A DNA stretch of 51,534 bases from Escherichia phage vB_EcoS_ULIM2. Location of the stretch: the sequence record OQ850291; one strand, 5' to 3'. Shown here one piece after another: positions 36,813-41,357 of the stretch. The position numbers and the translations under genes are program-made. Within the stretch, counting starts at the first letter, position 1. Every line of letters begins with the position of its first letter. A model generated the notes under the pieces. It saw nothing but the letters and a program-made list of their open reading frames with translations. It ran no database searches and had not been told where the DNA came from.

Positions 36813-37319
36813 ATGTTAAAATTAGAAGACGTAAAATTCCCGATTAAGTTTATCAGCAATGGTTGCGGTGAAATTACATTCGCCAGTGAAGATAAGGGCA
36901 AATGGGCCACTGATGAGGTGTCTGAGCTTAAGTTGGATTGGTTTATCGCCAGACATAACGAAGTGAATCAAGAAAATTCACCCAATAAGGACTACTACTA
37001 CATTATGAGTGGCGGTCAGGGTGTGAAAGGCATGTTTGATGGCTGGAAGATTGAAGGCTCTGTTTTCCGTTCTGAAAAGCCAGAAATCAAGCCAATGCTA
37101 CAGTGTACTCAGATCGAGAACATGCCATTGAGCGCCACGATAAAAGGCGTTCAGATTAGCGATGAATCATGGATCGAGATTACCGCCACGCCTAAAACTA
37201 TTGAGGTACATGATGATGTGGTGATTCTCCTGTTGCATTACGGCAGCTTTAAGCACAAGACTGTATCAGGTGAAATCAGCATTAAGCGCGGAACGCTTGT
37301 ACGATACGAGGTGAAATAA
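36813..37319 (+). CDS. Hypothetical protein (168 aa)
   Basis: ATG with AGGAAA RBS. Confidence 0.5.
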   Translation: MLKLEDVKFPIKFISNGCGEITFASEDKGKWATDEVSELKLDWFIARHNEVNQENSPNKDYYYIMSGGQGVKGMFDGWKIEGSVFRSEKPEIKPMLQCTQIENMPLSATIKGVQISDESWIEITATPKTIEVHDDVVILLLHYGSFKHKTVSGEISIKRGTLVRYEVK

Positions 37320-37468
37320 TGACGGCGTGGATTTTGATTATCTTGATGAGTACCGGGGCGGATCACGTATACATGAACAGCCAGCAATCATGCAACGAGG
37401 CTCAGGCAGTTATTGCAGAGAATAAGCCGTTCGGGTACGAAGTGAAAACGATGTGTGTTAAAAAATAG
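37319..37468 (+). CDS. Small protein with hydrophobic N-terminus (49 aa), not in the ORF track
   Basis: TAATG overlap with the upstream stop; translation begins MTAWILIILMSTG. Confidence 0.35.
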   Translation: MTAWILIILMSTGADHVYMNSQQSCNEAQAVIAENKPFGYEVKTMCVKK

Positions 37469-37508
37469 CACGAATTGCTAAACCTTCCGCAAGGCCATTT
37501 GATACAGT
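37466..37508 (+). promoter_or_regulatory. Box-type promoter
   Basis: TAGCAC (37466-37471), TTGCTA (37475-37480), 22 bp, TACAGT (37503-37508) within inverted repeat GGCCA/TGGCC. Confidence 0.5.
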
Positions 37509-37548
37509 GGCCTTATTGAAGCAGAGCAACCAATCAGAGGAATCAGCT

Positions 37549-37836
37549 ATGAGAAAAACTCATAAGTTAAAAATCGCTCCGGTACATTTCATCGGAGTAA
37601 TGAACGGAACAAAAACGGCAGAGTTCCGCATCAATGACCGCAACTTCCAGGTTGGTGATATCCTTGAGCTACGCGAGTTCGATCGTGACGAGTTTACCGG
37701 GTGGGAAGTTCACGCCAGGGTGTCCGATGTTACAGACGTGACGCCATACATCAATCGCGGTTATGACGAGCAAGAATGCGACTTCACGCAATACGTGATG
37801 TTATCAATCAAGCCTTACAGGAAGGTTGGACCATGA
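37549..37836 (+). CDS. ASCH/PUA-like domain protein (DUF3850-like, 95 aa)
   Basis: KTHKLKIAPVHF...EFRINDRNFQVGDILELRE matches the pattern of small phage ASCH-like proteins from memory; ATG after the CCAATCAGAGGAATCA leader. Confidence 0.45.
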   Translation: MRKTHKLKIAPVHFIGVMNGTKTAEFRINDRNFQVGDILELREFDRDEFTGWEVHARVSDVTDVTPYINRGYDEQECDFTQYVMLSIKPYRKVGP

Positions 37837-38471
37837 AATTTGAGTGCGTATCAAGTAGCGGATCTGGTTTTAAGTTGGGAAAAACTTACAAAGGTGTTCG
37901 CGTAAATGATGACAGCTTCATCATTACTGATGAGAACGGTTGCAACGTGAACGTTGTACGGCGTCACGAATATCAGGAAATTTTCCTGCCTTATGGCGGT
38001 AGCTCAAAATATATCTTCCATCGAATCGTGGATGGTGTTAAATTTAACGACGTAATCGAAGCAATCAACCAACTGCATAATAAAGAGGTAAAATTTATGA
38101 AATTCGAATGTATCAGTGATAACACTAAAAAATTTACCGTTGGCAAAATCTACGACGTGCCTACTGAGCACGCAAAGCACACTGTAGCGCTGACCGACGA
38201 CACGGGCCGCCACCGAATTGCAACCGTAACGCATAATGGCGAAGGTCTTCGCTGGAACAGTGGTGGCACTAAGTTCGCAACGTTCGGCAAGAAGCGCAAG
38301 CGCACTTTCAGCGTCAATGGCAATGTTGCAGCTAACAAGATCCACAACGTCAAGCCGTCGGAAGTTGACCGTAAGCCAGCGCTGAAGTTTGAAGAGAAGG
38401 CAGATTTGTCTGGTCTAGCTATCGCTCTTGTTCTCCTGGTCGCTTCGATTTCGCTGTTGTTCATCATGTAA
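37833..38471 (+). CDS. Hypothetical protein with internal tandem duplication and C-terminal transmembrane anchor (212 aa)
   Basis: Two repeats beginning MKFECVSSSGSGFKLGKTYKG and MKFECISDNTKKFTVGKIYDV; C-terminal LSGLAIALVLLVASISLLFIM; the second repeat has its own in-frame AAGAGG RBS and ATG at 38097. Confidence 0.5.
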   Translation: MKFECVSSSGSGFKLGKTYKGVRVNDDSFIITDENGCNVNVVRRHEYQEIFLPYGGSSKYIFHRIVDGVKFNDVIEAINQLHNKEVKFMKFECISDNTKKFTVGKIYDVPTEHAKHTVALTDDTGRHRIATVTHNGEGLRWNSGGTKFATFGKKRKRTFSVNGNVAANKIHNVKPSEVDRKPALKFEEKADLSGLAIALVLLVASISLLFIM

Positions 38472-38478
38472 TGCTAAT

Positions 38479-38512
38479 GGGGAATCGGCTCTGAACGGTT
38501 CCCCTTTCTTTT
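38479..38512 (+). terminator. Rho-independent terminator
   Basis: GGGGAA-N14-TTCCCC followed by TTTCTTTT. Confidence 0.5.
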
Positions 38513-38524
38513 GGAGAAAACACT

Positions 38525-38635
38525 ATGCCAGACTTTTCTAATTGGAAAAACGAACCTCCATCATTTCAGGAGTTGTTATTCTGCCTCCTGGTTCTGACGC
38601 TATCTCTTAAGGGGGTGTTATGGCTACTATCATGA
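38525..38635 (+). CDS. Small peptide with hydrophobic C-terminus (36 aa), not in the ORF track
   Basis: ATG 7 nt after GGAG; translation MPDFSNWKNEPPSFQELLFCLLVLTLSLKGVLWLLS; overlaps the start of the next gene. Confidence 0.3.
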   Translation: MPDFSNWKNEPPSFQELLFCLLVLTLSLKGVLWLLS

Positions 38636-38838
38636 CCGCAGAAGATGCAGCACGTGACGCAGTGGAAGGAATGCGACCAAATACGTCCAGAATCGCCCAC
38701 TGCTACAAATTTGATGTGTCGGCAGTGCAGTTGGTACACGAAATTTTAAGGCTCCCACAAGTCGATTCAGCGCGCGTGGTGACGTGCTTAAAAAATTATT
38801 TTTGCATCACTATTAAAACGAATAGCACGAATTGCTAA
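38620..38838 (+). CDS. Hypothetical protein (72 aa)
   Basis: ORF-track ORF with GGGGG RBS; its 3' end runs into a box-type promoter. Confidence 0.4.
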   Translation: MATIMTAEDAARDAVEGMRPNTSRIAHCYKFDVSAVQLVHEILRLPQVDSARVVTCLKNYFCITIKTNSTNC

Positions 38839-40924: not shown

Positions 40925-41154
40925 TGTTCGGTTTAAGCGAAGCGGAGTGGAATGTGGTAAAGCGTGCCGCGAAAGAATTAAACAAATTCGTTAGCGGAAT
41001 GAAGAAAGAAGATCGAAAAAACGACAAGATTATGATTGACGTAATATCGACTCACCACAAAAAGGTCGAGCTACTCATCGACCGCTACAAATTTGTCTGG
41101 ACTGCCGGGTATATTGCAGGGCGCGTAGGAAACAAAGAAGGGGATTACGAATAA
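40924..41154 (+). CDS. Hypothetical protein (76 aa)
   Basis: Overlapping stop/start with neighbours. Confidence 0.5.
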   Translation: MFGLSEAEWNVVKRAAKELNKFVSGMKKEDRKNDKIMIDVISTHHKKVELLIDRYKFVWTAGYIAGRVGNKEGDYE

Positions 41155-41357
41155 TGGCTAATTTACCGAAGAAAGGCGATCAGGTTCGGTGTGTCACCTC
41201 ACGCAATGGCGATGCTTTCTCAGCCGGGTGCGCGTACGACGTAGAAAAGGTTAGTAAATCAAAGAGACTTGTATTCGTGTACGGGGATGATGGAAATCTG
41301 CATGAGATTGACTACCCGCAGGATGTAACTAATGGTCAATTCGAAATTAATGATTGA
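41154..41357 (+). CDS. Hypothetical protein (67 aa)
   Basis: TAATG overlap with the upstream gene. Confidence 0.5.
   Translation: MANLPKKGDQVRCVTSRNGDAFSAGCAYDVEKVSKSKRLVFVYGDDGNLHEIDYPQDVTNGQFEIND

Follow-up and report, generated by a model that had tools for sequence, protein, structure and literature searches.

In-frame internal initiation, by which a single gene provides two products, is known from T7 gene 4A/4B, phiX174 A/A*, lambda C/Nu3, and the Escherichia coli genes infB (IF2 alpha/beta), clpB and cheA. Both products have been shown experimentally in these cases. Dual starts are also a feature of holin/antiholin genes (lambda S105/S107, P22 gene 13), where they lie 1-3 codons apart, alter the charge and topology of the N terminus and belong to a lysis cassette, in proteins made up mostly of transmembrane domains. 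Here we describe a gene of Escherichia phage vB_EcoS_ULIM2 (sequence record OQ850291; the 51,534 nucleotides analysed are referred to as the window), which maps to the plus strand at 37833..38471. It is probably a nested dual-start gene, from which two tail-anchored isoforms of 212 and 124 amino acids (aa) would both be made in this phage.

The locus is similar to genes of the T7 4A/4B type. One open reading frame (ORF) carries two ribosome-binding sites, the short form corresponds to the C-terminal portion of the long one, and the N-terminal domain is present in the long form only. In contrast to those genes, the short form would here also correspond to the free-standing ancestor, and the long form would have arisen when a copy of the same domain was added; moreover, the products are predicted from sequence. 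As in holin/antiholin genes, a phage membrane protein is encoded from two starts in the same frame. A dual start of the holin type was, however, rejected. The two starts are 88 codons apart, the protein has a single transmembrane (TM) segment at the C terminus, and the neighbouring genes encode a DUF3850 protein and a HAD/PNKP phosphatase rather than an endolysin or a spanin.

The closest described proteins are ST68 of phage T1, which is ~90% identical to residues 89-212 and is read from the homologous ATG, and the 212-aa "hypothetical proteins" of Tunavirus (phrog_10580), which are 75-98% identical over their full length. None of the ST68 or 212-aa records examined carries the annotation of an internal start or of a second product, and no function is given there.

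The long ORF starts at ATG 37833 and ends at TAA 38469-38471. It matches phrog_10580 from end to end (residues 1-212 on profile positions 1-212, E 7.8e-135), and is annotated as one coding sequence in many Tunavirus genomes. The short ORF (38097..38471, plus strand), the orthologue of T1 ST68, starts at the in-frame ATG 38097-38099, which is codon 89, and shares the stop codon; proteins of 124 aa are present in the protein database. The longest ORF that can be called mechanically begins further upstream, at 37776 (231 aa). In this phage, TGG replaces a TAG found in nearly all relatives two codons before the first ATG (37821-37832), and opens the frame up to ATG 37776. Because this TAG closes the upstream extension in nearly all relatives, 37833 is the right first start. 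The change to TGG is not conserved and is probably without consequence.

The encoded protein is modular, and all modules are given here on the plus strand. Residues 1-66 (37833..38030) correspond to barrel 1, a putative Tunavirus-specific N-terminal addition in which AlphaFold2 predicts six strands, with a predicted local distance difference test score (pLDDT) of 85-90 in residues 1-40. Codons 58-88 (38004..38096) encode the last strand of barrel 1 and a helix (residues 71-82), and stand out for low synonymous divergence and low RNA structure. Barrel 2, the conserved core of the family, spans residues 89-149 (38097..38279). It is followed by a basic and fast-evolving linker (residues 151-192; 38283..38408), predicted to be disordered (net charge +6; pLDDT below 50; ratio of non-synonymous to synonymous divergence, pN/pS, 0.47), for which indels and alternative versions are found among homologues. 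The last module is the C-terminal TM helix, or tail anchor (residues 193-212; 38409..38468). Its Kyte-Doolittle mean is 2.78 (residues 194-212), the next best segment of the protein reaching 0.56, and AlphaFold2 predicts a helix at residues 193-211. The hydrophobic tail is present in all homologues despite its varied sequence. On predicted sequence features, the protein has the single C-terminal TM segment, the lack of an N-terminal signal and the positively charged N-terminal flank that define tail-anchored proteins, and it ends at the TM helix. A sequence-only reading of this DNA had described a 212-aa protein with a C-terminal TM tail, and the ORF, the hydropathy and the predicted helix bear this out.

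The same reading had noticed AAGAGG-N8-ATG in frame at 38097, and had taken the ATG as an apparently genuine start from which a shorter isoform of 124 aa may be made. The motif is present as described. The internal Shine-Dalgarno (SD) sequence AAGAGGT (38083..38089, plus strand; AAGAGG itself at 38083-38088) lies 7-8 nt before the ATG, and the spacer between AAGAGG and ATG 38097 is 8 nt long (TAAAATTT). Its pairing energy with the anti-SD sequence is -7.1 kcal/mol, that of the first start being -7.2. Since this value ranks in the top 2.3% of the 343 internal in-frame ATGs of window ORFs of at least 100 aa, the internal SD is more than a chance occurrence. The surrounding RNA is predicted to be poorly structured. 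Ensemble folding energies of the 60-nt windows at 38064-38124 range from -3 to -5 kcal/mol (one reaches -7.2), against an operon mean of -12.4 +/- 3.7. With a GC content of 22-33% around the internal ATG, this is the least structured and most AT-rich stretch of the operon.

The sequence GAAGCA-N2-3-CAACCAA is found at two sites of the window only. Copy 1 (GAAGCAGAGCAACCAA; 37518..37533, plus strand) lies in the operon leader, 16 nt upstream of the first start codon of the operon. Copy 2 (GAAGCAATCAACCAA; 38058..38072, plus strand) lies 25 nt upstream of the internal ATG, and the local alignment of the two has a P of about 0.005. CA-rich leaders, located between a hairpin and the SD, also precede stand-alone orthologues. 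Ahead of the internal ATG, the coding sequence resembles a genuine leader, and we propose that the block formed by codons 58-88 may serve as the leader of the internal start in addition to encoding protein. In T1, the deletion of the DUF3850 gene together with barrel 1 has its junction inside this direct repeat, within copy 2 (L004 1519-1536), which suggests that it arose by microhomology between the two copies. T1 also lacks 9 nt (CATAATAAA), a difference that turns AAGAGG into GGAGG.

Conservation was assessed in 29 distinct full-length genes, 26 of which formed the core set for the main estimates of synonymous divergence (pS; Nei-Gojobori method). The sequence-only reading had named an internal ribosome-binding site that is not conserved as evidence against its proposal. 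The SD is kept in 28/29 full-length homologues: the energy of -7.1 kcal/mol is unchanged in 24/29, slightly weaker in 4/29, and the SD is lost in one (1/29). Across the same genes, the first start has an SD whose energy varies between -3.1 and -7.2 kcal/mol. In the core set, pS is 0.40 in codons 1-57, 0.087 (interval 0.034-0.150) in codons 58-88, 0.36 in codons 89-155 and 0.46 in codons 156-212, and the pattern does not change when all 29 sequences are used. Synonymous divergence is hence 4-5 fold lower over the 31 codons preceding the internal ATG, which feature half the count of synonymous codon variants of the rest and coincide with a trough in nucleotide diversity. Codons 82-85 (CAT AAT AAA GAG) have zero synonymous variants. 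A permutation scan, in which the lowest 31-codon window of column-shuffled data had to be as low as codons 58-88, gave P 0.003 with codons treated as independent. Divergence recovers right after the ATG. In codons 89-100, pN is 0.002 and pS 0.39, so that conservation is from there on purely at the protein level. At 37785-37805, inside the DUF3850 gene, nucleotide diversity is 0.04; this similar dip ahead of the first start provides an internal positive control.

Relatives that possess the second part alone point in the same direction. Phage T1 is devoid of the DUF3850 gene and of barrel 1, and the homologous ATG, preceded by GGAGG, is the start of ST68 (YP_003876.1, 124 aa). No other start is possible for the T1 orthologue, and the homologue of the internal ATG is the only plausible one in Chapo-type deletions, in nonsense variants and in all distant one-barrel orthologues. 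In phage Chapo, a deletion fuses the stop codon of the DUF3850 gene straight to codon 58, and codons 58-88 and the entire second part are kept. In the metagenomic lineage L026 (a protein cluster of 24), a stop codon occurs at codon 16 of barrel 1 and the second part is intact. In Badaguanvirus IME347, gp15 is a free-standing gene of 126 aa with the same AAAGAGG motif. The stand-alone orthologues read from the same ATG (T1, IME347, L040, L041) are under strong purifying selection (pN/pS 0.08-0.10), which indirectly suggests that the short product may be functional by itself. Together, the starts of the orthologues, the conservation of the SD, the synonymous constraint and the low structure support the claim that the internal ATG is a genuine start.

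A hidden Markov model (HMM) search of 1.84 billion representative proteins added three further clusters only (127, 145 and 127 aa), all with one barrel and a C-terminal TM segment. Their genes are found at the syntenic position in T1-like contigs, after a DUF3850 gene or a small gene. Clusters P0045 and P0047 match from residue 1, and P0046 (145 aa) matches from residue 7; the sole SD of P0046 lies before its upstream ATG. A 631-aa match (P0048) is a low-complexity serine-rich repeat protein and was taken as spurious. As far as these searches reach, the family is small and confined to T1-like phages, with the two-barrel form of 212 aa restricted to Tunavirus. Because the one-barrel architecture is common across the family and the two-barrel form occurs in Tunavirus only, the internal ATG would be the ancestral start codon. 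Most likely, the one-barrel gene is ancestral, and barrel 1 is an N-terminal addition specific to Tunavirus. This goes beyond the sequence-only reading: the long form is most likely derived, the short form corresponding to the ancestral gene.

Some frameshifted genes were left out of the count of first-half losses, as the shifts are possible sequencing errors (ADB-2, L021; L027; vB_SsoS_008, L006/L022). ADB-2 and L027 were not counted, moreover, because the break falls in the second half, as the called ORF lengths suggest: the shift lies within ~20 codons past the internal ATG in L027 (2218-2857) and near codon 133 in ADB-2. Several frameshifts are present in vB_SsoS_008.

Both parts of the protein open with MKFEC, and had been described as two homologous halves. 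Their homology is confirmed, although the halves are not equal. A BLASTP comparison of part 1 with part 2 detects the first 19 residues only (E 2e-5), and a profile-profile comparison, with 15 sequences of the first half and 24 of the second, covers 50 columns with 94.7% probability (E 6e-8). AlphaFold2 predicts the same six-strand pattern in residues 2-66 and 88-149, joined by the helix at residues 71-82. Module 1 is made of a barrel and a helix (88 aa), whereas module 2 is made of a barrel (~62 aa), the 42-aa basic linker and the TM helix. By profile and predicted fold, the two parts are true homologues of unequal make-up. Searches with HMMs of either half revealed no paralogues below E 0.05 in the window outside the gene.

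On sequence evidence, the long form also appears to be real. The pN/pS of barrel 1 is 0.20-0.25 (for the estimate of 0.20, interval 0.12-0.30), indicative of purifying selection; indels and frameshifts are absent from it in the 29 distinct sequences, and the ATGA overlap with the upstream gene is found in 26/29. It is also the region predicted with the highest AlphaFold2 confidence in the long protein. Barrel 1 evolves faster than barrel 2 (pN 0.12 vs 0.04), and has been lost independently at least three times (T1, Chapo, L026). Because it has been lost repeatedly though under purifying selection, barrel 1 would be beneficial yet dispensable.

A sequence of events may be proposed. The ancestor would have been a tail-anchored inner-membrane protein of ~125 aa, composed of a cytoplasmic six-stranded barrel, followed by a flexible basic linker and by a TM helix at the C terminus. 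In Tunavirus, a homologous barrel and a short helix would have been added in frame upstream, most simply via tandem duplication, and the old leader, SD and ATG would have become codons 58-89 of the 212-aa ORF with their initiation function retained. The order in which barrel 1 originated is inferred from the comparisons above. In the present phage, ribosomes finishing the DUF3850 gene would restart at ATGA (37833) and make the two-barrel form, while other ribosomes would load directly at the unstructured, AT-rich AAGAGGT-N7-ATG (38097) and make the one-barrel form, equivalent to T1 ST68. Both isoforms would share the linker and the membrane anchor. The N terminus, and with it the barrels, are placed in the cytoplasm by inference, because a signal peptide is lacking and the positive-inside rule favours this orientation.

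Alternative explanations differ in what they make of the internal site. The SD and ATG might be a relic of the stand-alone gene, unused wherever the long ORF is intact, so that only the 212-aa product is made. Descent from a one-barrel gene accounts for the motif, L025 retains the long ORF without the SD, and elongating ribosomes are generally able to mask internal sites. We regard this as unlikely, as an unused site is expected to decay at the rate of its flanks (pS 0.36-0.46), whereas pS is 0.087 over 31 codons and the SD codons are synonymously invariant in 29 sequences. The internal SD is also better kept than that of the first start, the internal site is the least structured of the operon, and the lineages that lost barrel 1, either by deletion or by a stop codon, keep an intact second half, which needs the internal start. 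Conversely, the short form might be the sole functional product, barrel 1 being dispensable, decaying or hardly translated, and the 212-aa ORF a convenience of annotation. Against this stand the pN/pS of barrel 1 (0.20, interval 0.12-0.30), which is clearly below 1, the lack of frameshifts and indels in 29 distinct sequences spanning a pS of about 0.4-0.47, the ATGA overlap in 26/29, the confidence with which barrel 1 is folded by AlphaFold2 (the highest of the protein), and the 212-aa length of most natural variants and protein clusters. Such a reading would fit the three or more independent losses of barrel 1 (T1, Chapo, L026), its faster evolution relative to barrel 2 (pN 0.12 vs 0.04) and the variability of the first start, which has an inconstant SD and is GTG in DELF2; all in all, we consider it quite improbable.

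It is very unlikely that the block preceding 38097 is conserved for some other role of the nucleic acid, such as an antisense gene, RNase processing, an internal promoter or a hotspot of recombination. A scan of both strands of 37300-38700 revealed no sigma-70-like promoter, and no known RNA element was matched in Rfam at E up to 1. A 51-aa antisense ORF (37991..38146, minus strand) coincides with the block; it is broken in many relatives, its TTG start being lost in 7 and stop codons occurring in at least 7, and it was discarded. Synonymous divergence recovers exactly at the internal ATG, as expected of an upstream initiation region, and another role would leave unexplained the SD-spacer-ATG geometry common to the stand-alone genes. 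Still, the low-diversity block measures ~90 nt and exceeds a ribosome-binding site, it holds the repeat of the operon leader at which the T1 deletion happened, and RNase E is known to prefer AT-rich unstructured RNA. It is possible that the block also acts in recombination or in processing, or as a standby site.

Several observations weigh against the production of both isoforms from a nested dual-start gene, which we nevertheless favour. In the literature on early expression, transcriptomes and isoforms of T1 and Drexlerviridae, we found no protein-level, ribosome-profiling or transcript data on the gene from any phage. Ribosomes that translate barrel 1 could block access to the internal site during elongation, and the short form is possibly minor where the long ORF is intact. 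In the single metagenome contig L025, the SD is lost (AAAGATG) and the long ORF is kept. The block of low pS extends over ~90 nt, more than an SD requires; its pN is also reduced (pN/pS 0.24-0.32), and shared recent ancestry could explain part of the pattern. The permutation (P 0.003) and the bootstrap treat codons as independent, and overstate independence for phage sequences that are related and mosaic. The polarity by which the one-barrel form is ancestral relies on four outgroup lineages, and independent losses are formally possible. Finally, the mean pLDDT of the models is moderate, 60.6 for the long and 69.6 for the short form. Modelled alone, the short form reaches a pLDDT of ~80-88 across most of the barrel.

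The 1.5 kb around the gene matched 86 phage records at 80-99% identity, almost all of which are Escherichia and Shigella Tunavirus (T1-like, Drexlerviridae). The gene lies in a variable early region, among small plus-strand genes lacking assigned roles. Upstream, a hairpin (AAGGCCA...TGGCCTT; 37491..37514, plus strand) closes the preceding transcription unit, and the small operon that includes the gene begins after it. The counterpart of this hairpin in phage SA32RD is annotated as a rho-independent terminator; the consensus scan gave no flag here (weak T tract). The first gene of the operon (37549..37836, plus strand) encodes a DUF3850/ASCH-like "RNA-binding protein" of 95 aa (Pfam PF12961, E 6e-16; phrog_986), and its stop codon overlaps the first ATG of the gene under study as ATGA. 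A comparison with pSf-2 indicates that its true start is ATG 37549. In the most divergent 212-aa variants, L024 (543-630) and L025 (627-713), the DUF3850 gene is followed by an 88-nt spacer with a weak SD, with no overlap; L025 is at the same time the one sequence devoid of the internal SD.

In pSf-2, Chapo and other phages (L003 1600-1860), the hairpin is separated from the DUF3850 gene by a 68-aa gene that is missing here (37507-37560). The deletion spans from just past the ATG of this gene to just past the ATG of the DUF3850 gene. As a result, the DUF3850 gene now uses the leader and the start of the lost gene (ATG 37549). A 109-aa ORF called mechanically from GTG 37507 starts within the hairpin and is probably not real.

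Downstream of the gene, the terminator is followed by a hydrophobic ORF of 36 aa and by genes for a T1p66-like protein and the HAD/PNKP phosphatase. The intrinsic terminator (38479..38514, plus strand), located directly after the stop codon, has a nine-pair stem with 6 GC pairs and a T tract, and is annotated as a terminator in T1, SA30RD and SA12KD. The conserved 36-aa ORF (38525-38635, plus strand; MPDFSNWKNEPPSFQELLFCLLVLTLSLKGVLWLLS) has one hydrophobic segment and is the homologue of T1 ST67 and IME347 gp16. The next gene starts within it (38620), and it is annotated in some relatives only. In phage SH2 (L002 2230-3033; window 38466-38635), both in-frame TAA codons that follow the TM helix are replaced by CAA. 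The ORF consequently reads through the terminator hairpin into the 36-aa ORF, and encodes 267 aa with two TM segments. In P0002, only the first stop is changed, which results in 214 aa.

The region encoding the linker and the anchor (38287-38445) exists in at least two very different versions, found in the 212-aa and 218-aa types (P0026, P0028, P0029, L032-L036), with indels. Nucleotide diversity reaches up to 0.5-0.9 here, and the preceding barrel is nearly invariant. The pattern looks like module exchange of the C-terminal tail.

Database searches gave few leads on function. NCBIfam and PADLOC returned no match for the protein. The match to Pfam DUF7244 (PF23896) covers residues 12-37 only, scores 17.5 bits against a 27-bit cutoff, and was discarded. 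PHROG matches other than phrog_10580 are restricted to ~40 N-terminal residues and involve small phage proteins lacking an assigned role, and Foldseek searches of viral models returned only other small uncharacterised phage proteins. In the predicted structures, both barrels share the fold of Gp54 of phage Bas11 (PDB 9AXB), a six-stranded small barrel. Homology to Gp54 was not detected at the sequence level: a profile search of the PDB gave no match at E up to 10, and identity in the structural alignments is 9-13%. Because sequence similarity is absent, the likeness is one of fold and not of family membership. A 67-aa ORF of the window (41154..41357) was considered as a Gp54 relative and yielded noise only.

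Gp54 is a 66-aa six-stranded barrel, dispensable in the laboratory, that directly activates CapRel-SJ46 as a second trigger (PMC11578894). Activation of CapRel hinges on individual residues, and even close homologues of Gp54 fail to activate it (PMC11578894). For this reason, the likeness allows no inference on CapRel for the protein described here. The two also differ in that Gp54 is a free soluble protein, whereas one or two barrels are here carried on a predicted membrane anchor. Judging from the fold, the dispensability of barrel 1 and the neighbourhood near pnk, the protein most likely sits at the inner face of the inner membrane and serves, without being essential, as an accessory or in interaction with the host. 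A more speculative idea, which we hold to be rather doubtful, is that the long and short forms are a selected functional pair. A leader turned coding sequence would still load ribosomes, and populations would switch between one-barrel and two-barrel output by deletions at the leader motif, by stop codons or by changes in SD strength. The pressure would come from host immunity proteins that sense small Gp54-like barrels, as CapRel-SJ46 does, and the extra barrel would act as a mask, a decoy or a modulator of the short form on the membrane.

General principles are left unchanged by these findings: both phages and bacteria offer well-known cases of in-frame internal initiation, and the arrangement is familiar in kind. 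If the internal start is used, each Tunavirus genome of this type encodes one protein beyond its annotation, and T1 ST68 has an unrecognised equivalent there. The locus would be a clean natural example of how a dual start may originate, by a tandem domain duplication that engulfs an old leader and start, both of which stay active. Natural "knock-outs" of the long form exist in T1, in Chapo and in the nonsense variant. The link in fold to Gp54, a known trigger of an immunity protein, offers a concrete first hypothesis for the family.

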